This document shows positions 1 through 13,247 of a stretch of 54,354 bases of DNA, one piece after another; the stretch's first letter is position 1, and each line of letters begins with the position of its first letter. The DNA is from an uncultured Elusimicrobium sp. (GTDB lineage Bacteria > Elusimicrobiota > Elusimicrobia > Elusimicrobiales > UBA9959), in NCBI GenBank assembly GCA_902783485.1, contig CACZRG010000099.1, positions 1 through 54,354 of the forward strand. The letters run 5' to 3'. Under the pieces are notes generated by a model, which worked only from the letters and a program-made list of their open reading frames with translations, was not told the origin of the DNA and did no database searches. Position numbers and translations under genes: made by a program.

Positions 1-193
1 AAGCGTAACAACAAGTATATGAAGACTTGGCCCGTAAAATGCCCCGGAAGACATAAGATAATGCTGAGGTTCTTCAGGAAAATCCGGCGGCTGTATAAGA
101 AGCCGGCCCGATTTGTCACTTAAAAACCAGCGTCCACAGTCATCCGAATGAAAAATTCCGGCTGAAGTAGCAGTTGAATTAAACTGAAAATTA

Positions 194-1336
194 TTAGACA
201 AGTCCATCCAGACTCTCCCCATGACCTGTAAGATATGCCTCCTGCGTAAGATCAGGAAGTGTACGGAAAAGATCCCTGCGCTCATTTTCCGGAATCACGG
301 AATAATAGGGCTCCGGTTCCTCTGTTACAGCCTTAAATTCGGAATATCCGAAAAGTTTAACATAATTAGCTTCAACGCCACAGCAGCGGCTTCCCCATAT
401 ACAGCCTGTACAACAGGGAAGGCGCACCCTGCCTCTGTATGAGACATCATATGTTTTTGAGAAATCAAAACCAGGCTGTATCAGCGTCTCAGAACCGGCG
501 TCATCCGTATCCTGAATGAAATCTATAACTCTGGATGCGTATTTTCCCATGATGCACGGAGGTATTATCTCCACAAAAGGAGGGACAATGCCCTCTGCCA
601 CACAATAATCTGTCATACGGAAAACACCTTCTGCCGCAGTGCTCATCGGCACAGCTATTGACCTGATGTTTTCAGTATTTTCTTTCTCGTCCGGATCCAG
701 ATTTCCAAGGAATTTCGTATAATGAACCATGAAAAAACGCACCCCCAGGCTACGATAGAAAGCAGCATAATCCGCGAGACTGTCACAGTTCTGCCTGGTA
801 AGCACACACACTGCTGTTGTAACTATATTGGCACGGCGAAGGTTTTCCAGCGCTTTTACTGCCCTTTCCAGCCCGTTTTCCGATCTTGTAAGATAATCAA
901 AGGTTTCGGGATCATGCGAAGGAAGATTTATCTGAACCGCATTAAGTTTAAGTTCAGCCATTTTCTCCGCATATCCAGGTTCCGCAAAGCGGAATCCGTT
1001 TGTAAATAACAAAGAACCTACATAGCCTACCCGGTTTGCAAAAGACAATACTGCAGGAAGATCCCGGTAAAGTGTAGGCTCTCCGCCCAAAACAGCAATA
1101 GTCCGGCTTCCTTCCTGATGATATGATTTGTAAATCGTCTCACACACTGTACGGAAAGGAAGCGGGTCACGATATTTTTCCCGGTCCCTCCGGGAAACAA
1201 AACAGAAACGGCAGGAGCGGCTGCAGGCATATCCCGGGTATATTTCCAGTTTACGGAATCTTTCATTGCATGGCTTATTCAAAGACGGTTTTCCACCCTC
1301 AGTCATACATTTCGCTCCATTTCCTGAAAATCTCAT
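194..1336 (-). CDS. radical SAM enzyme, mid-size class; paralog of 4105..5127 and 6248..7276; last visible gene of the operon
   Basis: CX3CX2C in YPGYACSRSCRFCFV. GGEPTL motif present. The C-terminal Cys cluster LPCCTGCIWGSRCCG aligns with PSCAGCVYADRCYG and PRCAECAYSDMCMG of the two paralogs. It overlaps the upstream gene by 38 nt; an alternative Met at 1306 gives an 8-nt overlap. Confidence 0.8.
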   Translation of the reverse strand: MRFSGNGAKCMTEGGKPSLNKPCNERFRKLEIYPGYACSRSCRFCFVSRRDREKYRDPLPFRTVCETIYKSYHQEGSRTIAVLGGEPTLYRDLPAVLSFANRVGYVGSLLFTNGFRFAEPGYAEKMAELKLNAVQINLPSHDPETFDYLTRSENGLERAVKALENLRRANIVTTAVCVLTRQNCDSLADYAAFYRSLGVRFFMVHYTKFLGNLDPDEKENTENIRSIAVPMSTAAEGVFRMTDYCVAEGIVPPFVEIIPPCIMGKYASRVIDFIQDTDDAGSETLIQPGFDFSKTYDVSYRGRVRLPCCTGCIWGSRCCGVEANYVKLFGYSEFKAVTEEPEPYYSVIPENERRDLFRTLPDLTQEAYLTGHGESLDGLV

Positions 1337-2747
1337 ATTTACAGGGATCGGAATTCATTGATGAAAGCAGTTCATAAACACTGCGGTAAAGGCGGCAGCG
1401 CTCATTCACCGCCATATTTCCTGCAATGCTATGCTGTGTAATGTAATTATATACAGGTGGAACGCGGCAGTAAAGCGACGACGGGCAGCGGGAACACATA
1501 GGCTGCCGCAGTTCAGTAAGCGCTGAAGCCACAAGTCTTATTGCCAGCGGCCTGCGTATTATTTTCCTGAATGTGTCAGAATATACGGAACCAAGACGGA
1601 AAGTTTCATCGCCACTGTTTGAAAGCATACGGGCCTCGTCGGAACCATATATTCCGCCGTCCCAGTTATATGCAAGCCGGTATAATATATCCAGATTCTG
1701 ATACCGTGGTCTGACCGTTCCATGAAGCTGCTTTGCGAAAGCGAGTGCAGCCTTCTCATACACGGGAATACCCCGGCTATTCAGCTCCAGCATATAGTTT
1801 ACTGCACGGCCATAAAAATCAAGAAATTCATCTGAAGAAACACCTATTGTGTTCCACGCTGCCGCTGCGCGGCCAAGCGGATCAACCGGTCCTAACTGTA
1901 CACGTTTAAGTCCGCAGGACAGAAATTCGTCAACAATCTCCCGTGCATAAGGCAGCGAATGCTTTGTGACAGTGCATATGGCATTAGGTGCCTCGGTATT
2001 ATTACGGGCAGCATAATCAGCGAAACGTTTCAGCCACGCAGACGCGCGTTCATGCGGCCCGGCATTAACCAGCTCTGCTCCGGTGGCAGCAGAGGAGCAT
2101 GGGCGGTTTCTGTCGTGAACAAACCGTGGCCCGTCAAGAGATGCACATACGGTAACATTGTTTTCAGTAAGAAAACGGAATTTTTCCTCGTCACATTCCC
2201 AAAGATTGGTAACCACGGAGAAAAAAACCTGTTTTTTCTTACCAATCGCCTTTTTTTTCGCTTTAAGCACGATGTATTTCAGCAATGGAAAAGTAACAAG
2301 AGGTTCTCCGCCCTGAAATTCTATCAGATATCTTTCCGGGTCAAGGGAAAAAATAAAATCCAGTATACGGTCCGCCGTTTCCTTGTTCATTCTGCGGCGG
2401 TCCACCGGCGAAGCAGAAGCACAGCAGTAAACACAGGAAAGCCTGCATACCGCACTAAGCGATATTATATGTACATGAGGAGACTTCCAGCCTTCAAAAT
2501 AACGGTTTAAAATCTCTTTCCTGTAAATATTCCTGTCAGCTGTCTCACTTACAAACCCCTGCTCAGAAAGCCCTACGGGCATTTCATCGAAAGGAAGTCC
2601 GCCATGAATGAATCTGTCAAATATTTCTCCGGAAACAACTATATTTCCGCCTGCCGCGTTTGTCAGAAGTACTTTGCCGCCGTTCAGGCGGCGGAATGAA
2701 AGATAATATGGATGCACAATTCTCTGTGCGTCGTACTGAATACTCAC
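1299..2747 (-). CDS. radical SAM enzyme, HxsB-like/anaerobic-sulfatase-maturase-like, with a degenerate SPASM domain
   Basis: CX3CX2C in SAVCRLSCVYCCAS. It is collinear with 9134..10585 over its full length: N-terminal LLTN..GGN..V.GE.F region, FQGGEPL, and C-terminal MCSRC...YC. It lacks the upstream SPASM cysteines: YGSDEA replaces YTCDEG. Confidence 0.8.
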   Translation of the reverse strand: MSIQYDAQRIVHPYYLSFRRLNGGKVLLTNAAGGNIVVSGEIFDRFIHGGLPFDEMPVGLSEQGFVSETADRNIYRKEILNRYFEGWKSPHVHIISLSAVCRLSCVYCCASASPVDRRRMNKETADRILDFIFSLDPERYLIEFQGGEPLVTFPLLKYIVLKAKKKAIGKKKQVFFSVVTNLWECDEEKFRFLTENNVTVCASLDGPRFVHDRNRPCSSAATGAELVNAGPHERASAWLKRFADYAARNNTEAPNAICTVTKHSLPYAREIVDEFLSCGLKRVQLGPVDPLGRAAAAWNTIGVSSDEFLDFYGRAVNYMLELNSRGIPVYEKAALAFAKQLHGTVRPRYQNLDILYRLAYNWDGGIYGSDEARMLSNSGDETFRLGSVYSDTFRKIIRRPLAIRLVASALTELRQPMCSRCPSSLYCRVPPVYNYITQHSIAGNMAVNERCRLYRSVYELLSSMNSDPCKYEIFRKWSEMYD

Positions 2748-4054
2748 AGTCCGTTCCTCCGTATTATTCTTTCAAGCATTTCCTCTCCGTAAAGTGCCGC
2801 AGTCACCCCCAGCCAGTCCTGCATACGCATTTCACATTTCCATCCACCGTCTGATTCCTCTATATAACCGCGGCAGGCCATATCTGCAGCTTTCCTGCGG
2901 AAAAACTCCTCACCTGCTGCGCCAAATTTTTCACGGACTTCCTCAGGCATAACAGTTACGCCGTGCAGCAGTGTATTCATGAGATAATGGATCAGTTCCT
3001 CTTCAATGCCTGTTTTCATATAAAGCTGTGAGAAAGCCCCGCCCGACAATGCTGATTCAGAATATTCGGCAGGGGAAACAATATTGCGGCTGCGCAGCCT
3101 GCCCCAGGCATGAGACATGGCTCCGGAACCAAGCCCAAGCAGAGAATTATCAAGATGAAAAATATAATTCCCCTGCTGGTTTCTTATTCCGTCAAGACAG
3201 GCACTTTCCTCGTCAAGCACAGTATAGCCTGCGCGACGCAGTATCTCAAGTCCGGCCTGCTGCCATGAGTAAAGTTCTTTTTTTATTTCAGGCGGCAGCG
3301 TCCCCGCGAGCGGCTTTATCCTGTTAAGATGAATCTGCGTAGGGCGAAGCCTGGAAAGCAGCAGTACATCACGTATGAAATCTTTTTTTGTCTGTCCTTT
3401 AAGCCCGCAGAGCAGATCTGCGTTTATATGTTTTATACCTGCACGCCTTACAAGATCAAAAGCATCTTTTATCCTTGTAACATCCTGAGCCCGTCCGTTA
3501 TCCCTGTTCACCGTGGCGCTGAAACTCTGTATTCCCATAAGCAGCATGGAAACACCGCATTCCGCCACAGCCACAGCTTTTTCCTCATCGAAGAAATCAG
3601 GATTTGATTCCATCGATATCTGGGCTCCAGGCTTTATCCTGAAATAATGTTTAAGTGAAATAAGAATTCTTTTCAGCAGTGATGCGGGAAGGAAATTAGG
3701 CGTTCCTCCGCCTATGTATACACAGGATATTTCCTTTTCCGCGAATACCGGGGCAAAAAAAGCCATTTCCTTTTCAGCAGCCAATATATATTTTTCCTGT
3801 TCTTCGTAAACAGAGCCCCCTTTAACATCGAGAAAACAGAAGGCGCATTTTTTTCTGCAGAAAGGTATGTTCAGATATATTCCGGCTTCACGCTGGGGAT
3901 TTTCACGCAGGCTTTCAGTCCAGAGCATACTCTGTTCCGCACGGGAAAGAGGACCGCTGTCCCAGGCAGTCAGCGAAGGGAAATGGGTGGGCAGACCGCC
4001 GTAACGGACATCATGCACAAGTGAAACTGCCTTTTCAATCTGTTCCTGCGTCAT
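2744..4054 (-). CDS. HemN/HemW-like (class C type) radical SAM enzyme
   Basis: CX3CX2C in IPFCRKKCAFCFLD, followed by the HemN-family hallmark VYIGGGTPNFL. Its length (436 aa) is typical of the coproporphyrinogen-III-oxidase-like family. It has a 4-nt ATGA overlap with the downstream gene. Confidence 0.85.
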   Translation of the reverse strand: MTQEQIEKAVSLVHDVRYGGLPTHFPSLTAWDSGPLSRAEQSMLWTESLRENPQREAGIYLNIPFCRKKCAFCFLDVKGGSVYEEQEKYILAAEKEMAFFAPVFAEKEISCVYIGGGTPNFLPASLLKRILISLKHYFRIKPGAQISMESNPDFFDEEKAVAVAECGVSMLLMGIQSFSATVNRDNGRAQDVTRIKDAFDLVRRAGIKHINADLLCGLKGQTKKDFIRDVLLLSRLRPTQIHLNRIKPLAGTLPPEIKKELYSWQQAGLEILRRAGYTVLDEESACLDGIRNQQGNYIFHLDNSLLGLGSGAMSHAWGRLRSRNIVSPAEYSESALSGGAFSQLYMKTGIEEELIHYLMNTLLHGVTVMPEEVREKFGAAGEEFFRRKAADMACRGYIEESDGGWKCEMRMQDWLGVTAALYGEEMLERIIRRNGL

Positions 4055-4104: not shown

Positions 4105-5127
4105 TCAGGGATAAAGAGTTTTATAAGGAAAATTTTTTTCCTCTTTATAATGCGGTATGAATTCGCTTCCGCCGTAAATCTTAACATATCCTGAATCCGG
4201 GCCATAGCACCTGTCTGCGTATACACAGCCGGCGCACGACGGCAGTCTGGTCTTGCGCTCCGGATAACTTTCCTTCACCTCACGTACTTTTCCGCCTATG
4301 CCCACCTTGGAAACAGCCTCCGGCCCGCTGAAACCCCAGTCGCTCATAAGGTTTGTCAGTTCCGGGGCCACGCATGGGACAAAATTACTGAGCATTTTTG
4401 ATTCTATCACTATATTTTTTACTTTCATATAGCGCAAAGCCAGCCTCAGATAAGGCACAGCTGCAGAATATTTTACACCGAGGCCTCCGGCCTCTTCAAG
4501 CATTCCTCCGGAATAAAAACTGAACATGAAGCAGAATCCTGTTACTCCAAGCCTGCTTCCGGCCAATCTGGCGAAAAGCGGCATCTGCATATAATTTCTT
4601 GACGTTACAGCAAAATTGAATGAAGCCTTTATCCCGGCACGGTTCAGATTCTCTGTTGCAATAAAAGCATTGTCAAAAGCTCCTGGAACCTGCATAAGCC
4701 AGTCATGCGTGGCAGCGTCGGTACCATGCAGGGAAATTTTCACCTCGTCTATCCCGGCATCTGCAAGCCTGCGCACATAATCATAATCACGCAGTTTAAG
4801 TCCGTTGGTAAGAATCTGTACAGATTTAAAACCGCGTTTTTTGGCGTACGCCGAAATTTTCTCCAGCCCCGGATACAGTGTCACCTCACCGCCGGAGAAT
4901 GTGACAAGCCAGGCTCCTTCAGAAGCCCATTTATCAATACGTTCCCTTATTAGTGACTCCGGCAGCCATACCGCTTTTTCCTGTAAATCTTTAGCACAGC
5001 AGAAAACACAGCGTGCATTGCAGGCATCGCCTAAAAGGAGCTCGCGGGAAATTATCGGCGAGCCAGGTTCCGGCCAGCCGAATTTTTTTACGGCATCAAA
5101 AATAGTAAGTGCGGGATATCTGCTCAC
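4105..5127 (-). CDS. radical SAM enzyme, mid-size class (HxsC-like candidate)
   Basis: CX3CX2C in GDACNARCVFCCAK, plus GGEVTLYPGL. The C-terminal CX2CX5C is PSCAGCVYADRCYG. It is a clear paralog of 6248..7276 (KKFGWP/RKYGWP, LSNFVPCV, GGSEFIP/GGDEFVP). Confidence 0.8.
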   Translation of the reverse strand: MSRYPALTIFDAVKKFGWPEPGSPIISRELLLGDACNARCVFCCAKDLQEKAVWLPESLIRERIDKWASEGAWLVTFSGGEVTLYPGLEKISAYAKKRGFKSVQILTNGLKLRDYDYVRRLADAGIDEVKISLHGTDAATHDWLMQVPGAFDNAFIATENLNRAGIKASFNFAVTSRNYMQMPLFARLAGSRLGVTGFCFMFSFYSGGMLEEAGGLGVKYSAAVPYLRLALRYMKVKNIVIESKMLSNFVPCVAPELTNLMSDWGFSGPEAVSKVGIGGKVREVKESYPERKTRLPSCAGCVYADRCYGPDSGYVKIYGGSEFIPHYKEEKNFPYKTLYP

Positions 5128-6248
5128 TTTATATCAGAACTCCCGTAATCCTTGTACTCATTTTTTCTGCACCGGGCAAGAAAACGTGCATATTCAGCAA
5201 AAGTCTTATCTTTTTTTGCTGTTTTAAGAATATCAAAGAAAATTCTGCGTAACAGTGCAGTACGCAGTGAATAAGCCTCTGCCCCGTCTGAAAGACCTGG
5301 AATGCGGTAATATGATGAAACACATTCAGCACAGCGTTTTTCGTCTTTGTTCTGTTCACAGTCCCTGTACCTTTCAGATAAACCTTTCTCCGCAGAACCT
5401 ATGCACACTTTATCACGGCTTTCCTTGTAATCAAGGAAGGCGAAAGGATAAAAAGAAAGAACTCCGTCCGGATACATTTCCAGATCCCTGTACATCGGGC
5501 AGAATACCGGCGTATCTGGTCCGCCTGTGCGGAAAAATTCTATAAAAGGCTCTGGAATAATAAAATTATGTTTTGATATTTCACCAAACAAAAAATCAGC
5601 AAACCTGCTTATGGAATCAGAGAGGGCGTCATATTGCCCGTCAGTCCATTCCATGCCATGTACACATTCTATATTTATAACACGGAAACCTCTTTTCACA
5701 AGACTGCACAGATCCGTAAAAAGCCTGGAAGCCCCTGCCGGCGCCACACATTCAAGCGCAACTATATCATAAGGGTTCATTTTTCCGAGAATATAGTCTA
5801 TTTTCGGTTCAAGAGCATCCCAGCTGCCATGTCCATCAGGAAAAATACGGCATGAATCATGATTTTCCTTAGACCCGGATACACTTATTGAAAGATTTAT
5901 CCTGTATTTACGCAGAAAATCAACAATTTTTTCATTCAGCAGAATTCCGTTTGTTGCTATGGAAAGAGACAGCAGTTTCTTTTTTTCTGCTGAATATCCG
6001 GCAGCAAATTTCACTGATTTTTCCAGAAGTTCCATTTTCAGGAAAGGCTCGCCACCATAAAGTTCAAGCCGCTTCTGTACTCCGGGGGAATCCATAAGCA
6101 TTCTTATTCCCTTTTCTGCGTATGAAAAGGGAAGTTCAAGCCCTGCTTTCTTGTCTATATTACAGTGATGGCACTCAAGCACACAGTCCGTGGTAAGCGC
6201 AAGTTTAAGTTTCTGTATCTCTTTGGCAGCCATCACTGTTTCACTCAT
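5124..6248 (-). CDS. radical SAM enzyme, distinct subfamily
   Basis: CX3CX2C in TTDCVLECHHCNID, plus LYGGEPFL. C-terminal cysteines occur in RDCEQNKDEKRCAECVSSYY. It overlaps its neighbours on both sides by 4 nt and 1 nt. Confidence 0.75.
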   Translation of the reverse strand: MSETVMAAKEIQKLKLALTTDCVLECHHCNIDKKAGLELPFSYAEKGIRMLMDSPGVQKRLELYGGEPFLKMELLEKSVKFAAGYSAEKKKLLSLSIATNGILLNEKIVDFLRKYRINLSISVSGSKENHDSCRIFPDGHGSWDALEPKIDYILGKMNPYDIVALECVAPAGASRLFTDLCSLVKRGFRVINIECVHGMEWTDGQYDALSDSISRFADFLFGEISKHNFIIPEPFIEFFRTGGPDTPVFCPMYRDLEMYPDGVLSFYPFAFLDYKESRDKVCIGSAEKGLSERYRDCEQNKDEKRCAECVSSYYRIPGLSDGAEAYSLRTALLRRIFFDILKTAKKDKTFAEYARFLARCRKNEYKDYGSSDIK

Positions 6249-7276
6249 TAATCACTGCTGTAGCAGGTTTTTAAAGGAAAATCCTTCCGTATTTCCTTAA
6301 GCGGCACAAACTCATCTCCGCCAAAATAATTATAATATTCACGCTCAAAACCCATGCACATATCAGAATATGCACATTCCGCGCAGCGTGGCACCTTCAT
6401 ACGCTGGCTTTCCTTCATCTCATACACTTTCATCGGTTCATTATTAGGCACAAAAAGCAGATCATCACGCTTCTGATATTTCCATTCAGCCATCAGATTT
6501 GCATATTCAGGAAGCACACAGGGCACAAAATTGCTAAGACAGGCACTTTCAAGTACAATACCGTTTTTCTCAAAATATTGAAGGGCTTTGCGCAGATAAG
6601 GGACATAATCCCTGTACTGTATTTTGTAAATATTGCCATTGGTTTTCATGGCGCCAAGGTAATGAGGAGAAATAAACAGATACGCATCTATGCCAAGCTG
6701 TCCTGTTACAAGCGCAGGCAGCTCCGGAAGGTATTTGTAATTAAGCGGAATTATGACATTGTTTATTCCGGCGCGGCAGTCAAGCTTAACAATATTTTCA
6801 AGTGCTTTTACGGTTTTGCGGAAACCGCCAGGCACACCGGTTATTCTGTCGCTCAGATCTTCACGGCTTGCATGAAGCGACATACGGAAGACATTTATTC
6901 CGGCATCAACCAGTCTTTTGGCATAATCATAGTCGGCAAGCAGTAGCCCGTTTGTTGTTATCTGAACAGCTTTATAACCCAGCTTGCGGGCAATGCGGCC
7001 TATTTCAGGCAGGTCTTTTCTTAATGTAACTTCGCCTCCAAGTATATCAGCAAACCAGGCCCCTTCCTCCCTGCCTTTGGCCAGAGACCTCGCTATCTCC
7101 TTAAGCGAAAGCTCCCCTTCACTCCATTCAGGCTCAAAATTCGGGTTATAGCAGAACAGACACCTGGCGTTGCAGGTAAAATTTATAACGAGCTCACATA
7201 TCTTTGGACGGTCAAGCGGCCAGCCATATTTTCTGGCAGCCTCTATCGGTCCCAATGCTTTCTTTTTATCTTCCAT
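6248..7276 (-). CDS. radical SAM enzyme, mid-size class (HxsC-like candidate); first gene after the peptide gene
   Basis: CX3CX2C in NFTCNARCLFCYNP, plus GGEVTLRKDL and a C-terminal PRCAECAYSDMCMG. Confidence 0.8.
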   Translation of the reverse strand: MEDKKKALGPIEAARKYGWPLDRPKICELVINFTCNARCLFCYNPNFEPEWSEGELSLKEIARSLAKGREEGAWFADILGGEVTLRKDLPEIGRIARKLGYKAVQITTNGLLLADYDYAKRLVDAGINVFRMSLHASREDLSDRITGVPGGFRKTVKALENIVKLDCRAGINNVIIPLNYKYLPELPALVTGQLGIDAYLFISPHYLGAMKTNGNIYKIQYRDYVPYLRKALQYFEKNGIVLESACLSNFVPCVLPEYANLMAEWKYQKRDDLLFVPNNEPMKVYEMKESQRMKVPRCAECAYSDMCMGFEREYYNYFGGDEFVPLKEIRKDFPLKTCYSSD

Positions 7277-7292
7277 GATATATTATTTTAAC

Positions 7293-7329
7293 AAAAGAAG
7301 AGGGAATCCTGCCGGATCCCTCTTCTTTT
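7293..7329 (-). terminator. stem-loop between the peptide gene and the downstream radical SAM genes; candidate partial terminator/attenuator
   Basis: aaaagaagagggaatcc-tgcc-ggatccctcttctttt forms a stem of about 16 bp with one bulged A and a 4-nt loop. On the minus strand the stem runs into TTTTGTT. It lies 36 nt after the peptide stop codon and 17 nt before the next start codon. Confidence 0.5.
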
Positions 7330-7364: not shown

Positions 7365-7721
7365 TCAGCACCATCCGCCACGCGCATGGGAGCCATGAGA
7401 GCCATGAGAGCCATGAGAACCGTGCGAACTATGAGAATTATGCGCCACATGACTATAATGGGAATTCGCAGGTACACTGGAACTGTAAGACCAGTTTAAA
7501 TGCAAGGTGTTAAAAACGTTATGATTTATTGACAAATTTGTATGGGCAGTCTGATTATGCTGAAAAAAATTAGCATGATTGTTTGTTCCGGCAGAAACAA
7601 CATCCGCATCAGAAATTGCAGCCCCAATTATGCCTAAAGTAACTCCAAGTTTCACAACATCTGAATTAAGGATTTTACCTTCTTCGCTGTTAAGAAATCT
7701 GCTTATATCCTTTTTTTTCAT
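7365..7721 (-). CDS. His-Xaa-Ser repeat peptide (HxsA-like), putative radical SAM substrate/precursor
   Basis: The C-terminus reads SHYSHVAHNSHSSHGSHGSHGSHGSHARGGWC, with nine His at strict 3-residue spacing. There are 14 His in the last 72 residues. The Lys-rich N-terminus (MKKKD) is followed by a hydrophobic stretch LGVTLGIIGAAI. The gene sits inside a radical SAM operon. Confidence 0.7.
   Translation of the reverse strand: MKKKDISRFLNSEEGKILNSDVVKLGVTLGIIGAAISDADVVSAGTNNHANFFQHNQTAHTNLSINHNVFNTLHLNWSYSSSVPANSHYSHVAHNSHSSHGSHGSHGSHGSHARGGWC
7383..7462 (-). repeat. 9-nt periodic coding repeat (His codon every 9 nt)
   Basis: The plus strand shows catgggagc catgagagc catgagagc catgagaac cgtgcgaac tatgagaat tatgcgcca catgactat. 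The atg/gtg triplets are reverse complements of CAT/CAC His codons. Confidence 0.85.
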
Positions 7722-7745: not shown

Positions 7746-8837
7746 TTACTTGCCTTTTCCATTGTTAAAAACTATGCTTTTGTGGCGCGGACTTCTTGAT
7801 TCTGAATATTTGCCACCACTACAGTAGTTTTTGCTGAGCCTGTCCATATGGGACTTGCATGCATCAGGACTTTCCTTTGCGAAATACGCCATACATATAA
7901 CACCAGCTCGTCCTGAAGGACAGAGTTTAACATTGTCATACTTAACTGCCTGATAAATTTTCATGTTTTCGCGGCAGTCTTCAGCAACAGCACCTGTCAG
8001 CCTGGAACAGTCCGATTCCTGTTCAGGGAGATAGGAAAGACATTTCTGTTTTCCATCTTCATTCAATCCAAGCGAAGAACAGAGTGATTCGCCTCTTTTC
8101 TGCTGCGACAGCACACATATATCGCCGTCTACTCCAGGTGCATGAAACAAATCACATAACCGTCTACTGGCTTTTCCAACAGAATATAATGTAAGATAGA
8201 AATTCGCAAGTTTTTCCCTGCATGTATCTGTAATTCCTTTAAATTCGTGAGCAGCAATATTTTCGAATTCACTGCTATTCAAATCAATAACAGAAAGCCT
8301 GTCGCACACATTAGGGTCATTTGACGTAACAGCACGGCAGGCAGTATAATCTGTAAGCCCGTTCGCAACAGCTTTATACCATTTCTCATCATGCGGAGCG
8401 ACTGACATTCTGCCCCATACGCTTCCGTATGAATCTATTATCTCAGCAAAAGTTGCAGTTTTGCAGGGCCAGTTAAGTCTGGGACCTGATGTTCCAGCAA
8501 CAAATGGAATTTCTTCAACGGGTTTTATGTTTTCCATCTCCATCAGGCGCATTTCTTCCTGACGGTGTCGTTCCTCTTCACGAACCTGCTCTTCTATACG
8601 TCTTGCCTGTTCTTTGTCCGCATCAGTTAGAAAGCCCTGGAAATTATCATCCTTATGCTCGTTTTTGATTTCATCAACAAGCCCCTTTGCCGAATCAGGA
8701 AGTGCCTGCTGATCCACATCTATTGTAGTACTGGAAGAAGCAGTTTTTCCTACATCCTGTATTTTAGGCTCATTAAGTTTTATATAGGCAAGAATGGCGA
8801 TAACAATAAGAATTACAACTATACCGGTTTTACTCAT
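7746..8837 (-). CDS. membrane-anchored, Cys-rich protein of unknown function
   Basis: N-terminal TM helix GIVVILIVIAILAYI, then a charged coiled segment EEQVREEERHRQEEMRLMEMEN, then a domain of about 240 aa with roughly 16 Cys. It has a 4-nt overlap with the upstream gene. Confidence 0.6.
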   Translation of the reverse strand: MSKTGIVVILIVIAILAYIKLNEPKIQDVGKTASSSTTIDVDQQALPDSAKGLVDEIKNEHKDDNFQGFLTDADKEQARRIEEQVREEERHRQEEMRLMEMENIKPVEEIPFVAGTSGPRLNWPCKTATFAEIIDSYGSVWGRMSVAPHDEKWYKAVANGLTDYTACRAVTSNDPNVCDRLSVIDLNSSEFENIAAHEFKGITDTCREKLANFYLTLYSVGKASRRLCDLFHAPGVDGDICVLSQQKRGESLCSSLGLNEDGKQKCLSYLPEQESDCSRLTGAVAEDCRENMKIYQAVKYDNVKLCPSGRAGVICMAYFAKESPDACKSHMDRLSKNYCSGGKYSESRSPRHKSIVFNNGKGK

Positions 8838-9130
8838 TCCCGTTTACCTCCACCTATAGCAGAAATAAGGGCTTTTGAAACAATAAGTTTTGTAAGCCCT
8901 GACGACACTTTGGAAACATCTATCCTGCACTGCTGATTAAGCACTTCATTTGCAAAAATTTCCGGTTCATTTTCAGAAAATTGATTAAATGTTACTTCCA
9001 TGCCATTATCTTTTCTCTCAATGACAAAATCAACTTTATCCTCAAGAATGAACGCAGCCATATCCACCGCCTCTGCAGAATATACAGAAGAAGCAAAAAA
9101 AATTTTTTTCTCTATTATTTCCGAAGCCAT
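8834..9130 (-). CDS. small protein, HxsD-like candidate
   Basis: It is 98 aa and lies immediately downstream of an HxsB-like enzyme. It shares a pattern with 10575..11024: S.Y(S/T)AEAV..AA(F/Y), then ..EV.F, then F.(N/E)E(V/L). Confidence 0.4.
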   Translation of the reverse strand: MASEIIEKKIFFASSVYSAEAVDMAAFILEDKVDFVIERKDNGMEVTFNQFSENEPEIFANEVLNQQCRIDVSKVSSGLTKLIVSKALISAIGGGKRE

Positions 9131-9133
9131 TTT

Positions 9134-10585
9134 CTAATAACTCCCCGTTATCCATTTTTTCAGGATTGCTTCATTATCTTTTTCTTTAAGAAGTTCCAGT
9201 ATAAAATCTATCTGTCCTCTGTTGACAGCACAGCGCATGTTATTAGCCATATCTCCGGCAAAAGACCCCTGCGTTGCATAATTAAACACCGGGCAGGTAC
9301 CGCAGTAAGGCATATATGCACAGCGTGAACACATAGCCTGTGCATTAAGCTCAGATGCGCATTTGCATGCGCGGACAGCATCGGCTGTAAGTACTTTTTC
9401 AACCGGATCATCTACAGAACCAATGCGGAAAATATCATCTCCTTCCATGGCAAGCATACGGCCTTCATCACAGGTATAAATGCTGCCATCATAGTTGTAC
9501 GCAATCTGACCCGTACCGGCACCGCACGGGGAATCAACATCGTAATTGCCTCCGTTTCCTGCATCAAATATTTTACTGCAGAAAATAATACAGGCCTGCT
9601 CAGATATGGTGACGCCTTTTTTATTTAGTTCTATGATATGTTTTAAAGCCTCAGAATAAAAATCAAGGTATTCCGCAGGGGTTATTCCTATTGTATTCCA
9701 GTTCCTGCCGGCATATCCTATTTTTGAAACCGGGCGCAGATATATTGACTCCAGTCCGGCCGACACATATTCATCTACTATTTCCTTAGCATGACCAATG
9801 GAATTTTTTGTAACCGTAACAATAGCGCCTGGTTTAAAAATTCTATATGAATTTCCTTTCTGATTATCATGGCGTTCTTTAAAATATTTCAGCCATCTGC
9901 GTACTGTTCCATAAGAAATATCATTCTCTGAATGCCTGTTTTTAGAATGAACATATTCAGGGCCGTCAAGAGAAGTACACAACGTGATTTCATTCTTTAG
10001 CAAAAAGTCAGCTTTCTGCTCATCCATAAGAATGAAATTTGAGATAAGAGATATTGATACTGTTCTTGCAGATTTTTTTTCTTTTTCCCTGATATATTCT
10101 ACTGTATCAGCAAGAACTTTCCAATTGAGCAGAGGTTCCCCGCCTTGGAATTCAAAATTCAGCACAGGCGAAGATGTATTAAATGCAAAATCTACAGCTT
10201 TCTTCGCTGTTTCCAGGGACATATCAAGAACCTTATCCTGCTTGCCCGGTGACCCTGCCTGACAGTATACACACTGCATATTGCACCGTCCAGTCATAAC
10301 CATAATATGAAGAACTGGCGCCATCATCACATTACAATGTCTTTTGACCCATGAAAGAGAATGTTTTTCCGGGTCAATCATTTCAGCTGCAAAACCTTTG
10401 TCCAAAAGTTCTTGTGGGATATCAGATACTGCCAAAGAACAATCTTTTGAACAAATACTTTCAAATTCCTCTCCTGGAATTTCAACATTTCCGCCAAAAT
10501 CATTTGTCAGTAAAATTTTATTCTTATATTTTTTCCAATGCTGAAAAAGAAGAGTAAATTTTTCAGGTTTCTTCTTATTTTCCAT
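9134..10585 (-). CDS. radical SAM/SPASM enzyme, HxsB-like
   Basis: CX3CX2C in TGRCNMQCVYCQAG, plus FQGGEPLL. The SPASM cysteine set is complete: SPCGAG...GSIYTCDEG (GX4C), MCSRCAYMPYCGTC (CX2CX5CX2C) and a downstream MRC. An N-terminal extension of about 95 aa precedes the core. Confidence 0.85.
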   Translation of the reverse strand: MENKKKPEKFTLLFQHWKKYKNKILLTNDFGGNVEIPGEEFESICSKDCSLAVSDIPQELLDKGFAAEMIDPEKHSLSWVKRHCNVMMAPVLHIMVMTGRCNMQCVYCQAGSPGKQDKVLDMSLETAKKAVDFAFNTSSPVLNFEFQGGEPLLNWKVLADTVEYIREKEKKSARTVSISLISNFILMDEQKADFLLKNEITLCTSLDGPEYVHSKNRHSENDISYGTVRRWLKYFKERHDNQKGNSYRIFKPGAIVTVTKNSIGHAKEIVDEYVSAGLESIYLRPVSKIGYAGRNWNTIGITPAEYLDFYSEALKHIIELNKKGVTISEQACIIFCSKIFDAGNGGNYDVDSPCGAGTGQIAYNYDGSIYTCDEGRMLAMEGDDIFRIGSVDDPVEKVLTADAVRACKCASELNAQAMCSRCAYMPYCGTCPVFNYATQGSFAGDMANNMRCAVNRGQIDFILELLKEKDNEAILKKWITGSY

Positions 10586-11024
10586 TCCTGTTGACCTCTT
10601 CCCATGTCTGAGTTATATGCATAGGATCATTATTCCTGCTGCTGTTCATTTCATCCTGAAGCTCTTTTTCAACCTCTGCAATCAGATCATCAAGCTCCTG
10701 CTCCTGTTCCGCTGATAAAGCCGGCTGTTCATCATGAACAAATGAAGGATTGAATCTGGATATAGCATTCCTGATTATCATTTCAGAAGTAGCTATATTC
10801 TGCATTCTGCTTTTTTCACGGATTTTTTCATCAGCAAGTTCTTCTGTGAACCTTTTTTCTACCTGATTTATATTTTTATCTTTCTTGGAAGAAAAAATTA
10901 CTTCAAGAGCATTATTGCCAGAAGGCTGAATCTGAACCCAGAAATCATCAGTACATACATATGCAGCATATCTGACAGCTTCCGCTGTGTTTTCAGACAG
11001 AGAAACAATAATTTTTTTATTCAT
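10575..11024 (-). CDS. small protein, HxsD-like N-terminal domain plus acidic tail
   Basis: It is 149 aa. The N-terminal ~100 aa resemble 8834..9130 in pattern, and the C-terminus is acidic (EQEQELDDLIAEVEKELQDE). It has an 11-nt overlap with the HxsB-like gene. Confidence 0.4.
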   Translation of the reverse strand: MNKKIIVSLSENTAEAVRYAAYVCTDDFWVQIQPSGNNALEVIFSSKKDKNINQVEKRFTEELADEKIREKSRMQNIATSEMIIRNAISRFNPSFVHDEQPALSAEQEQELDDLIAEVEKELQDEMNSSRNNDPMHITQTWEEVNRNGK

Positions 11025-11035
11025 ATACTTTTAAA

Positions 11036-12148
11036 TTAATTTTCTACCGGCAGGTACAATGCACAACAGGTCAGATATCCCTGAGCACTAAATCTTGTGT
11101 CCTGACTATAAAACATAGGAGCACCTGCATAGGAGCCTGTATTATACGCATTGCCATCAGTTACAGTACGCGAGGCTGAAGTCATGTTATTATGAGGCAA
11201 AAAACCGATTGCCACATAACCGCTTTTACATGATGTAACACCGCCTAAATACCGTTTCTGATAGCATAAATTCTGAATTTTTGTTTTGGATGTGCTACCG
11301 TTAGACCAATTACCAAGGATAATATCTCCTTCAACTGTAAGCTGGCCGTGAATAGTTATATAAAGAGGCTTAATTCTATCAGCTGTAATTGCTGGATACC
11401 CGTCAGATATAATTCTAAGACGCGTACCGCTACCTGCACCAATAACAGCCTCAGTTCCAACCGTTCCGTCGTTATCAAGATCAAGAAAAGCTGAATAATT
11501 GTTTTTGGCAACCAGAATACCGGAAGGACCACCATCTGATGAATTACTATAGCCGGTAAGATTAACTAATAATTTTGCATCATTGGAATAAGGGAATGAT
11601 GAAGATACGCCCTTTCCACTTTTTTTCTGAGTACTACCTCCGTCACTGCCTATATATATATGTTTGTTTGTGGCCAAAGGCACATTAGAAAACAGACCAG
11701 AATAACCAGTGGCAGTAGTGGCCTGTGAATAACTGTTGCTGTAACCGACATAAACCTGACCGCTGTTGTAGCCTATGTGCGTAGCACCAAATTGATTAGT
11801 AGAAGTAGGCGTTGTTGTAGATTCGCTCATCATGCCCAAATAGCCGTATCCATACTGATACATATACGACCCGCCTGCACTTCTTGTTGCATTTTTACCT
11901 ATGTATGTATAACCACCGTTCCTGTTGGCATACACAGACGTCCACGCCGTATCAGCCAGATATGTTGTACTTTTTGAAACCAGCTGATAATATCCACCGT
12001 ATGGGGCAGGATAATAACTGGTCATAGTCATGGTCTGCGCACTGTCCAGAAGAGCAGGACGCCATAGCATAAGAGCCAGCACAAGCAGTACATATACTTT
12101 CCTGGCTGTCAAATTCACTTTCAGAGCAATTTCTTTAGTCTGTTCCAT
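11036..12148 (-). CDS. membrane-anchored Tyr/Gly/Ser/Thr-rich protein of unknown function; first gene of the operon
   Basis: N-terminal hydrophobic anchor VYVLLVLALMLW. The low-complexity aromatic region includes SYYPAPYGGYY and YMYQYGYGYLG. The C-terminus contains YLTCCALY. Confidence 0.55.
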   Translation of the reverse strand: MEQTKEIALKVNLTARKVYVLLVLALMLWRPALLDSAQTMTMTSYYPAPYGGYYQLVSKSTTYLADTAWTSVYANRNGGYTYIGKNATRSAGGSYMYQYGYGYLGMMSESTTTPTSTNQFGATHIGYNSGQVYVGYSNSYSQATTATGYSGLFSNVPLATNKHIYIGSDGGSTQKKSGKGVSSSFPYSNDAKLLVNLTGYSNSSDGGPSGILVAKNNYSAFLDLDNDGTVGTEAVIGAGSGTRLRIISDGYPAITADRIKPLYITIHGQLTVEGDIILGNWSNGSTSKTKIQNLCYQKRYLGGVTSCKSGYVAIGFLPHNNMTSASRTVTDGNAYNTGSYAGAPMFYSQDTRFSAQGYLTCCALYLPVEN

Positions 12149-12202: not shown

Positions 12203-12231
12203 ATTATACCACACGGGACTGTCTTTTTCAA
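12203..12231 (-). promoter_or_regulatory. sigma70-like promoter for the radical SAM operon
   Basis: The minus strand reads TTGAAA-17 nt-TATAAT, with TGG immediately upstream of the -10 (extended -10). The -10 lies about 55 nt upstream of the start codon at 12148. Confidence 0.45.
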
Positions 12232-12269: not shown

Positions 12270-12641
12270 TTATCTGTTTACCAGAACAAGTTTCTTTTTA
12301 AACACTTCTGAAATAAAACCGGAAGCCTCATAAAAAATTTCTTCAAAATCTTTTCTGCACTGCGGTTCGTCAGACAAAAATGATCCACTATTTTTTACAG
12401 ACAGAATAAAAACATCCCCTTCAAGCTCATCGGGGAGCGAGCGCAGACAGTCAAGCATTGCGTCCCAGTTATTACCAAAATAAGCCGGAAAGTGGAATGC
12501 AGAGGAAACCGCTTTCATAAGATTTTCTTTGTTCTGTACCGTGCGTCCGTCTATTTCTGCAGTAAAACACACGGAAGCCGGAAAAAGTTCTTCCGGCTTC
12601 CGATGTTCCGACAGTCCGATAAAAACTTCGGATTTCTTCAT
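12270..12641 (-). CDS. barstar-like ribonuclease inhibitor
   Basis: FPAYFGNNWDAMLDCL matches the barstar core PEYYGENLDALWDCL. The gene starts 15 nt after the ribonuclease gene ends. Confidence 0.8.
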   Translation of the reverse strand: MKKSEVFIGLSEHRKPEELFPASVCFTAEIDGRTVQNKENLMKAVSSAFHFPAYFGNNWDAMLDCLRSLPDELEGDVFILSVKNSGSFLSDEPQCRKDFEEIFYEASGFISEVFKKKLVLVNR

Positions 12642-12656
12642 TTTAGTATCCGTATA

Positions 12657-13247
12657 TCAGTAGACCATCTGCAGCTGGATGAATGTGCGGTAATGGTCAG
12701 GAGTATAGTAAATATATCCTCCGCCGCCGACAATAATGCGCTCAGCTCCACGTCTGCCTAACTTTTCGCTCAAAGCATAGGCAACGCCACCGATAACTAC
12801 ATGGGAAGGATAGGCTCCAGGCGGAAGCAGCGTATACTCATGGTAGAAACCATAAGACTGGGCAGGCAGTCTTCCCTCTTTGTTCTGGAATACTACACCG
12901 TCCTGCTGATAGGGAAGCTGCTCCCCTCTGTAAATTTTACCGATAAGTTCAAGAATGGAACTTACACGAATCTGGTCTTCAATCTTCGGATAAATATCTC
13001 TGCCAGGTGCCGGGCATGGAGGATTGTAATCGTACTGCCCGCGTGTGGCAGGCTGCTCATTTTCAACAGCCATAGCTGCAGCAGGGGCAGGAATAGCTTT
13101 TTTGACTTTTCCGGAAAGCGAAGCTTTTGCCGATATGGAAGTTTTCTTTGGCTGCGCATTCTGGGCACTGATAACGTTAGCAAACAGCGGTGCAATAAGC
13201 AGGGCAAAGGCAATAACCAGAAATTTTTTCAGATTTTTCATTTTCAT
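12657..13247 (-). CDS. secreted guanyl-specific ribonuclease (RNase Sa/barnase, N1/T1 superfamily)
   Basis: Signal peptide MKMKNLKKFLVIAFALLIAPLFANVISA. The catalytic core QQDGVVFQNKEGRLPAQSYGFYHEYTL...RGAERII...YYTPDHYRTF is collinear with RNase Sa (SQDGVVFQNRESVLPTQSYGYYHEYTV...RGTRRII...YYTGDHYATF). Confidence 0.85.
   Translation of the reverse strand: MKMKNLKKFLVIAFALLIAPLFANVISAQNAQPKKTSISAKASLSGKVKKAIPAPAAAMAVENEQPATRGQYDYNPPCPAPGRDIYPKIEDQIRVSSILELIGKIYRGEQLPYQQDGVVFQNKEGRLPAQSYGFYHEYTLLPPGAYPSHVVIGGVAYALSEKLGRRGAERIIVGGGGYIYYTPDHYRTFIQLQMVY

Follow-up and report, generated by a model that had tools for sequence, protein, structure and literature searches.

The window analysed here, a 54,354-nucleotide stretch of DNA from an uncultured Elusimicrobium sp. 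(assembly GCA_902783485.1, contig CACZRG010000099.1, positions 1 to 54,354 of the forward strand), carries on its minus strand a short open reading frame (ORF) at 7365..7721 that encodes a 118-residue peptide with a histidine repeat array at its C-terminus. An earlier note, made from the letters alone, had singled out this ORF as a candidate precursor with nine in-register triplets, 14 His in 72 residues and a terminal GGWC, and it translates exactly as described there. The peptide gene is real and is under strong purifying selection. Its existence, the three-part design of its family and its tight linkage across phyla to HxsB, HxsD-like proteins and many intact radical S-adenosylmethionine (SAM) enzymes are established by the comparisons below. 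The locus is a markedly expanded variant of the His-Xaa-Ser (HXS) system, a second and more elaborate form of it. The features of the peptide gene, which include a result from the ratio of non-synonymous to synonymous substitution rates (dN/dS), are as follows.

7365..7721, minus strand: HxsA3/A4-like His-Xaa-Ser repeat protein, 118 residues (translation, NCBIfam, homologues, dN/dS)
7674..7697, minus strand: conserved N-terminal motif F-L-N-S-E-E-G-K, residues 9-16 (homologue alignment)
7611..7649, minus strand: hydrophobic stretch LGVTLGIIGAAIS, residues 25-37, resembling the h-region of a signal peptide (hydropathy)
7461..7586, minus strand: N/Q/T/H-rich middle region, residues 46-87, fast-evolving and specific to the closest relatives (alignment A1)
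7380..7460, minus strand: nine in-register H-x-x repeats, residues 88-114 (regular-expression search of the six-frame translation)
7368..7379, minus strand: C-terminal G-G-W-C tail (six-frame translation)

A GAGGAG ribosome-binding site (Shine-Dalgarno) ends 7 nt 5' of the ATG. The repeat run at 7380..7460 reads HYS-HVA-HNS-HSS-HGS-HGS-HGS-HGS-HAR, so that seven of its nine units are H-x-S; the x position is held four times by Gly and once each by Tyr, Val, Asn, Ser and Ala, and the peptide ends four residues past the last repeat. The region spanning residues 46-118 has no Asp, Glu or Lys and a single Arg alongside its 14 His, all of which lie within the last 72 residues. The five His upstream of the array are at positions 49, 55, 60, 67 and 74, and their spacings of 6, 5, 7 and 7 rule out a hidden three-residue periodicity among them. 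When the peptide's own residues were shuffled 300,000 times, the longest in-register His run obtained was seven (three cases); runs of eight or nine were never seen. A scan of all six frames of the window gave no further ORF with HxS repeats or a GGWC end. At the DNA level, part of the array (7385..7436) is a 9-bp tandem repeat, CATGAGAGC, present in 5.8 copies, and slippage has therefore probably contributed to the build-up of the array. The N-terminus is basic, and the hydrophobic stretch that follows it (13 residues) has a KD19 hydropathy maximum of 1.51, comparable to the signal peptides of Skp and BamA encoded in the same window; from its length it is judged too short for a stable membrane helix. 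The N-terminal region had been read as either a leader or a weak signal, and it resembles both.

Comparison with orthologues shows that selection acts on the protein. Between the window and the orthologue at the related locus L002, the repeat region differs by 14 synonymous and two non-synonymous changes (dN/dS of about 0.016), which, despite the tandem DNA repeat, places the constraint on the encoded residues; the same H-x-S pattern is written with different codons in the orthologues. The N-terminal 45 residues are also constrained (dN/dS of 0.05-0.19), and residues 46-86 evolve fast (dN of 0.38-0.99). The 118-residue gene was called independently at the same place on six near-identical metagenome contigs, always with nine repeats. 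Two of these contigs are identical in nucleotides and the others differ at V41I, Q57E and S98G, the last of these at an x position.

The peptide belongs to a large family. A word-indexed protein search gave at least 93 homologues; this search missed the identical 118-residue sequence, although it is called in public assemblies, so the homologue counts are lower bounds, and the miss probably reflects the low-complexity repeat. A profile search of 1.84 billion representatives retrieved at least 760 clusters with E <= 1e-3, of which 100 had E <= 1e-10; their lengths were almost always in the range of 80-150 residues. The family design has three parts. The first is an N-terminal motif, [K/R]-rich and then F-L-x-S-E-E-G-K, found in 80 of the 93 homologues; in alignment A1 (33 homologues) E13 is invariant and F9, L10, S12, E14, G15 and K16 are conserved at 90% or more. 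The second is the hydrophobic stretch, which begins about eight residues past the motif and has a median length of 13 residues; an AxA-like site and a conserved His often come next. After a variable spacer comes the third part, an array of 4-30 in-register H-x-x repeats (median eight) that stops six or fewer residues from the C-terminus in 86% of the homologues. In the family repeats Gly, Ser or Ala fills the x position, and about 85% of units have Ser as their third residue; H100, H106, H109, H112 and S105 are invariant in alignment A1. Loss of the periodicity in homologues, which would have spoken against a functional array, was not seen: the His register and the N-terminal region are both conserved.

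The C-terminal end of the array is also conserved. An aromatic residue is present within the last four residues of 83 of the 93 homologues, and in 74 of them a Trp is found there; a Cys is found in 45. The commonest endings are GGWC (40/93) and GQW (17/93), with others such as SW, SY and SF. Judged from this alignment, the terminal Trp, or at least an aromatic residue, is a conserved feature and the Cys is optional. Both residues had been put forward as cross-link partners; the conservation agrees with that for Trp, and not for Cys, which is lacking from the large subgroup that ends in GQW.

Some distant members of the family are fusions. P0210, P0169 and P0185 carry the same N-terminal motif and HxS repeats joined to a Hint/intein-like domain, the first Cys of which directly follows the repeats, at the position that corresponds to the terminal Cys of the window peptide. 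P0210 passes the Pfam cut-offs for PT-HINT and Intein_splicing, and in P0185 the Hint-like domain separates the repeats from a C-terminal RGCGW..GW tail. The position of these domains immediately after the HxS repeats suggests that thioester or autoprocessing chemistry takes place at the end of the array in part of the family. In two further proteins (P0108 and P0109; 470-484 residues) the HxS array is followed by a Cys and then by a domain of about 330 residues that starts SCPF[LV]xVW and has no Pfam match.

We treat the window peptide as a divergent His-Xaa-Ser repeat protein of the HxsA3/A4 type, on the strength of its sequence relatives, and not as HxsA proper. All 33 homologues in alignment A1 match HxsA3 (best E-value 1.4e-17) and 32 of the 33 match HxsA4, compared with five of 33 for canonical HxsA (TIGR03979). 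Four homologues (P0012, P0019, P0027 and P0074) pass the HxsA4 cut-off (58.7-95.5 bits) and align full-length with the window peptide, P0012 over 100% of its length. The architecture of HxsA4, with motif and hydrophobic stretch, C-terminal HxS repeats and aromatic end, is that of the window peptide. HxsA3 and HxsA4 are NCBIfam families defined bioinformatically, and they share the three-part design; the difference is that the window peptide has an N/Q/T/H-rich insertion of about 40 residues. A literature search on HxsA3, HxsA4, HxsC4 and radical-SAM clusters in Elusimicrobia found nothing relevant, and curators with models for HxsA2 to HxsA4 already in hand will hardly be surprised that the peptide exists.

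The peptide gene lies within an operon-like run of twelve minus-strand genes, from 12148 down to 194, which overlap or are separated by gaps of at most 50 bp, with the exception of an 88-bp gap after the peptide gene. The other genes and the transcription signals of the run, in the order of reading, are listed here.

12203..12231, minus strand: best sigma-70-like promoter match, TTGAAA-17-TATAAT with a TG, upstream of the first operon gene (11/12 positions; a consensus match only)
11036..12148, minus strand: exported protein of unknown family, 370 residues, first operon gene (conserved TLTTYYPAPYGGY motif, C-terminal Cys-Cys)
10575..11024, minus strand: longer HxsD-like protein, 149 residues (TIGR03976, 40.4 bits; cut-off of 50 not reached)
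9134..10585, minus strand: HxsB radical-SAM/SPASM maturase, HxsB-1 (TIGR03978, 429.8 bits; above the cut-off of 370)
8834..9130, minus strand: small HxsD-like protein, 98 residues (TIGR03976, 36.8 bits; cut-off of 50 not reached)
7746..8837, minus strand: protein of unknown family, 363 residues, with an N-terminal membrane anchor, a coiled region and 14 invariant Cys (alignment A2)
7293..7329, minus strand: terminator- or attenuator-like hairpin with a U-run behind it, within the 88-bp gap downstream of the peptide gene (-27.6 kcal/mol, z = -2.95; terminator scan)
6248..7276, minus strand: radical-SAM enzyme, 342 residues, distantly HxsC4/HxsC-like (HxsC4 89 bits, cut-off 500; HxsC 77 bits, cut-off 268)
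5124..6248, minus strand: PapB-like radical-SAM enzyme, 374 residues (NF047865, 118 bits; cut-off of 340 not reached; CX3CX2C intact)
4105..5127, minus strand: HxsC4/HxsC-like radical-SAM enzyme, 340 residues (NCBIfam, motif)
2744..4054, minus strand: HemN/HutW/STM4012-like radical-SAM enzyme, 436 residues (NCBIfam, motif)
1299..2747, minus strand: second HxsB-like radical-SAM/SPASM enzyme, HxsB-2, 482 residues (TIGR03978, 335.6 bits; cut-off of 370 not reached; CX3CX2C intact)
194..1336, minus strand: HxsC4-like radical-SAM enzyme, 380 residues (NCBIfam, motif)
1..207, minus strand: third HxsB-like gene, 5' part only, truncated at the window edge (frame open to position 1)

The CX3CX2C motif is kept in seven of the seven radical-SAM proteins of the window, and the 342-residue enzyme also has a C-terminal CX2CX5C motif. 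Because the window edge cuts the cluster, only seven of its radical-SAM genes are seen whole; at the orthologous locus L001 the next genes encode a 450-residue HxsB (421.6 bits) and a 302-residue HxsC-like enzyme (152.8 bits against a cut-off of 267.9). The full cluster by this comparison has nine radical-SAM genes, three of them HxsB-like, in place of the two HxsB-like enzymes first noticed; the other six are radical-SAM genes of other kinds. The closest solved structure to HxsB-1 is CteB (5wgg; residues 70-436 aligned, E = 2e-19). The gene for the 149-residue HxsD-like protein is kept directly upstream of HxsB in most loci and its orthologue carries PF27806; homologues of the 98-residue protein likewise carry the Pfam HxsD domain PF27806. 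The AlphaFold2 (AF2) model of the 98-residue HxsD-like protein, with a mean predicted local distance difference test score (pLDDT) of 85.5, has a small beta-alpha-beta-beta-alpha fold.

The two unknown proteins are conserved with the peptide. The 370-residue protein is found in at least ten related loci and has no family match. Its sequence E-T-L-T-L-T-T-Y-Y-P-A-P-Y-G-G-Y, just past the signal-like N-terminus, is strongly conserved, as is a C-terminal ...G-x-M-x-C-C. The 363-residue gene is conserved directly upstream of the peptide gene and is syntenic in the Elusimicrobia loci; its product combines the invariant motif DQQALPDSAKGLVDEIK with a charged coiled segment and with an all-alpha domain that holds the 14 invariant Cys. 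This protein has no family match either, and a Foldseek search of its AF2 model (pLDDT 65.5, all-alpha) against the PDB gave no structural match (best E-value 0.5).

The 88-bp gap that holds the hairpin is the largest intergenic gap of the operon. At L002 a hairpin of different sequence occupies the same position (z = -3.4). The position of the hairpin, and not its sequence, is conserved in Elusimicrobiales orthologues, and no such hairpin is present at the loci of Omnitrophota and Patescibacteria. On its flank the operon has barnase-barstar and bamA-skp-lpxD, an arrangement conserved in related Elusimicrobiales genomes. The barnase-barstar pair (12270..13247, minus strand), which lies between the HXS-type operon and bamA and is kept at the same position in related genomes, consists of a secreted barnase-like ribonuclease (196 residues, with a clear signal peptide) and a barstar inhibitor. 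An Rfam search of the window gave a single tRNA, far from the locus.

The arrangement of the locus recurs across phyla. The common order is HxsD-like (about 150 residues), HxsB, small HxsD, an unknown protein of about 300-360 residues, the peptide and then two to eight radical-SAM genes; in the window and in some related loci the unknown 370-residue gene stands at the head. This order is found in metagenome-assembled genomes (MAGs) of Elusimicrobia, in Omnitrophota, Patescibacteria, Moraniibacteriota and Saccharibacteria, and in unclassified MAGs, and a DPANN archaeon has a related arrangement. At the Omnitrophota locus the peptide is a true HxsA4 (95.5 bits), so that the neighbourhood of HxsD-like gene, HxsB, peptide and many radical-SAM genes is also that of HxsA4. 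The peptide comes directly after HxsB in 17 of 20 genuine related loci from at least four phyla; genome-scan matches in Bacillus and Streptomyces (L016 and L022), which were to the repeat only, were discarded. The core of the original proposal, that this is a genuine short protein of HxsA-like kind tied to HxsB-type radical-SAM enzymes as their likely substrate, is supported by the homologues and the operon.

One Elusimicrobiales MAG (GCA_024681855.1; L003 and L023) holds two HxS-peptide systems, the peptide being of the GGWC type in the first and of the GQW type in the second. This second system includes a separate HxsD-like protein and a separate HxsB, and about eight more radical-SAM genes bring its total to nine. 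Each system of this genome has about nine radical-SAM genes, and some of the radical-SAM proteins of the second are fused to flavodoxin-like domains or carry B12-binding domains.

The only experimental work on His-Xaa-Ser systems found in a literature search concerns the canonical four-gene form. In Pseudomonadota, canonical HXS (HxsD-B-C-A) defends against phages by blocking the entry of DNA (Li et al., Nat Commun 2026, PMC13128918). HxsB, HxsC and HxsD are all required there for the N-terminal processing of HxsA, for its +8 Da modification and for its accumulation in the periplasm. The modification is single and maps to the last repeat, SHRSS; the peptidoglycan-binding domain of HxsA is essential for defence; and HxsC binds HxsD, with the chemistry of the system still unsolved (all PMC13128918). 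The suggestion that cross-links are repeated along the window array finds no parallel in this sole characterized HxsA, with its one modification in the last repeat.

The two forms (TIGR03979, TIGR03978, TIGR03977 and TIGR03976 model the canonical one) share HxS repeats, a signal-like N-terminus, a bona fide HxsB and HxsD-like and HxsC-like proteins, and by analogy maturation would be expected to depend on radical-SAM enzymes here too. An Arg is present in the last repeat of both (SHAR here, SHRSS there). The differences are nevertheless considerable. Canonical HxsA has about 190-214 residues and a peptidoglycan-binding domain, whereas the window peptide has 118 residues and lacks the domain. 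The canonical repeats are central and Arg-rich, as in the HxsA of an Aeromonas plasmid (L007), which has a signal peptide, central repeats HRSHRSHSSHRSHSSHRSHYS with Arg at the x position in four of seven units and a C-terminal peptidoglycan-binding region; those of the window peptide are C-terminal and Gly/Ser-rich, with one Arg in the whole C-terminal part. The FLxSEEGK motif and the terminal Trp are absent from canonical HxsA and present here. The canonical operon is ordered D-B-C-A and has two radical-SAM genes, compared with D'-B-D-X-A-(radical-SAM genes), nine radical-SAM genes and two extra exported proteins in the present cluster. The HxsD-like (36.8 and 40.4 bits versus 50) and HxsC-like proteins (at most 77 bits in the window and 152.8 in the orthologous cluster, versus 267.9) fall below the canonical cut-offs; the HxsC4-like enzymes score far below the cut-off of HxsC4 (NF038332; 89 versus 500), the radical-SAM partner of HxsA4. 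Finally, the present form is chromosomal and core-like and occurs in Elusimicrobia, candidate phyla radiation (CPR) bacteria, Omnitrophota and DPANN, in contrast to the Pseudomonadota of canonical HXS.

Other peptide-modifying systems offer partial parallels. SCIFF/CteB-type and PapB-type SPASM maturases (5wgg), the relatives of HxsB-1 and of the 374-residue enzyme, cross-link ribosomal peptides that are recognized through an N-terminal leader. The window substrate differs in that it has no Cys-rich core, and no recognition element (RRE) has been demonstrated. The pyrroloquinoline quinone (PQQ; PqqA/D/E) and mycofactocin (MftA/B/C) pathways likewise work on a small peptide whose C-terminal aromatic residue is conserved, by means of a radical-SAM/SPASM enzyme aided by a small accessory protein. 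The likeness goes no further than analogy: they have no counterpart to the signal-like stretch or to the long conserved repeat array, and the HxsD model is not PqqD-like.

We favour the reading, with a probability of roughly 0.6, that the ORF encodes the substrate of an expanded radical-SAM maturation system of HXS type, of the HxsA3/HxsA4 kind, and that this product is modified in the cytoplasm and then exported. The steps would be as follows. The hairpin may partly terminate the transcript downstream of the peptide gene and would thereby raise peptide message above enzyme message. The N-terminal motif FLNSEEGK could then be bound in the cytoplasm by the maturation machinery, that is by HxsB through its N-terminal extension, by the two HxsD-like proteins, or by both. 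CteB carries an N-terminal RRE; its alignment with HxsB-1 covers residues 70-436 of HxsB-1 only. HxsB, together with the HxsC-like, PapB-like and HemN-like radical-SAM enzymes, is predicted to modify the C-terminal HxS array and the R-G-G-W-C tail covalently; the prime candidate sites, by analogy with the +8 Da modification of canonical HxsA, would be the last repeat SHAR and the neighbouring Trp. The hydrophobic stretch would subsequently serve as a Sec-type signal, either cleaved or acting as a weak anchor, and carry the uncharged His-rich part to the envelope, where the peptide may act with the two co-encoded exported proteins. In favour of export are the hydropathy of the stretch and its signal-like flanking charges, the AxA-like sites of the homologues, the basic N-terminus, the lack of Asp, Glu and Lys from residues 46-118, and the N-terminal anchor or signal sequences of these two conserved neighbours. 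The end function could be to bar phage or DNA, as canonical HXS does, to bind metal, or to serve at the envelope or cell surface.

Several observations count against this reading or limit it. The family scores are low: HxsA4 (NF038313) gives 34 bits (E = 4e-8) over residues 58-113 only, with a cut-off of 55, and HxsA3 (NF038309) gives 26.4 bits over residues 3-72, with a cut-off of 65. The low scores arise because the N/Q/T/H-rich insertion separates the signal-like region from the repeats; the closest orthologues also fall below the HxsA4 cut-off (27 and 20 bits), and shorter homologues that lack the middle region pass it. Membership of the HxsA family proper, as first supposed, does not hold, since the peptide has no match to TIGR03979 at E <= 0.01, gives no BLASTP alignment with canonical Aeromonas HxsA and has no domain in a Pfam search, and thus no peptidoglycan-binding domain. 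No HxsC-like enzyme in the window or in the related loci checked reaches the cut-off of HxsC or HxsC4; even at the true HxsA4 locus L005 the best HxsC4 score is 208 bits, and the HxsC4 model is therefore a poor general criterion. A role of HxsD as an RRE is unsupported: the best matches of its AF2 model in the PDB, which are not significant (E = 0.056), are to Pcc1/KH/ferredoxin-like two-layer folds, with no PqqD or RRE match among them. For a Sec signal, the n-region of the peptide is unusual in having 24 residues and a conserved acidic motif, and members of the family are found as well in CPR bacteria and DPANN archaea, whose cells have no classical periplasm. Next to one homologue (L004) there is no radical-SAM gene, only a partial one about 10 kb downstream at the edge of the 20-kb locus, and some of the radical-SAM genes might serve another, merely adjacent pathway. 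Modification, cleavage and export of the peptide are predictions from sequence.

The alternative that stands up best is that the locus is functionally equivalent to anti-phage HXS, with the matured HxS peptide blocking entry of phage DNA in the periplasm, as the canonical system does (PMC13128918). Both share an HxsB above the cut-off, HxsD-like proteins and an HxS repeat effector with a signal-like N-terminus. The peptidoglycan-binding domain that is essential in the canonical system is, however, missing, and the x position is Gly, Ser or Ala and not Arg; with a single basic residue besides His in residues 46-118, these non-basic repeats weaken a model of electrostatic DNA binding. The locus is in no mobile or defence-island context and keeps its place beside bamA-skp-lpxD in several genomes, its gene order is not D-B-C-A, it has nine radical-SAM genes to the canonical two, and 99.7% of canonical systems are in Pseudomonadota. 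PADLOC, run on eight cluster proteins, gave only weak viperin-type radical-SAM matches and no defence-system match, in a version (2023) that has no model for canonical HXS. A defence role of the canonical kind is possible but weakly supported, and we consider it unlikely.

Somewhat less likely again is a classical ribosomally synthesized and post-translationally modified peptide (RiPP), in which the leader is removed and a small, heavily cross-linked peptide is secreted as an antimicrobial or signal. A short ORF beside SPASM-type maturases related to CteB and PapB is the generic mark of such a precursor, many tailoring enzymes are at hand, and the hairpin behind the precursor gene recalls many RiPP operons. 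On the other hand, the operon and the orthologous clusters gave no match to a leader peptidase or ABC exporter family, the N-terminus has a Sec-like hydrophobic stretch, and a core of about 70 residues with 4-30 repeats across the family is unlike a defined bioactive scaffold. The locus is moreover conserved and non-mobile, and two systems can share one genome.

The peptide could instead, like PqqA and MftA, be a precursor that is sacrificed to make a small redox cofactor or metallophore, its C-terminal aromatic residue, with or without the Cys, being rebuilt and excised and the array acting as a handle. The aromatic residue immediately after the repeats in 83 of 93 homologues would fit, as would small HxsD-type partners resembling PqqD and MftB and the many radical-SAM enzymes, one of them HemN-like. 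We regard this as improbable: the most strongly conserved part is the HxS array itself, the signal-like stretch points to export of a polypeptide, HxsD lacks a PqqD-like fold, and the operon has no peptidase or oxidoreductase of the cofactor-pathway type. Still more improbable is a plain His-rich protein for binding or storage of metal (Ni, Zn or Cu, similar to Hpn) with incidental radical-SAM neighbours. On general chemical grounds HxS and HGS arrays are good chelators, and the 14 His of the last 72 residues are accompanied by no acidic residue; yet simple chelation needs neither the N-terminal motif nor the C-terminal Trp, and the position directly after HxsB in 17 of 20 loci from at least four phyla is hardly incidental. 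That the ORF is a chance product of the 9-bp tandem repeat at 7385..7436 and not a gene is refuted by a dN/dS far below 1 with different codons for the same H-x-S pattern, by the hundreds of homologues (760 representative clusters), by the conserved synteny and by the ribosome-binding site.

A further reading is offered only as a tentative proposal that we hold to be somewhat doubtful. The locus may represent a distinct, chromosomally fixed envelope system, unconnected with phage defence, of small-celled and mostly uncultivated lineages (Elusimicrobia, Omnitrophota, CPR/Patescibacteria and DPANN), with two such systems in some genomes. In it up to nine radical-SAM enzymes would hyper-modify a single exported peptide with a His/Ser array, and the product, together with two Cys-rich exported proteins, would bring new peptide chemistry and a new cell-surface or metal-related function.

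The first functional assignment of a His-Xaa-Ser system came only in 2026 and covers the four-gene proteobacterial form. The present locus offers three HxsB paralogues, several HxsC-like enzymes, PapB-like and HemN-like enzymes and two HxsD-like proteins, together with a small peptide substrate that should suit mass spectrometry far better than the insoluble 214-residue HxsA. Reconstitution of the system could reveal how HxsB- and HxsC-type enzymes act on His and Ser, and could show roles for HxS arrays beyond phage defence in poorly known phyla.

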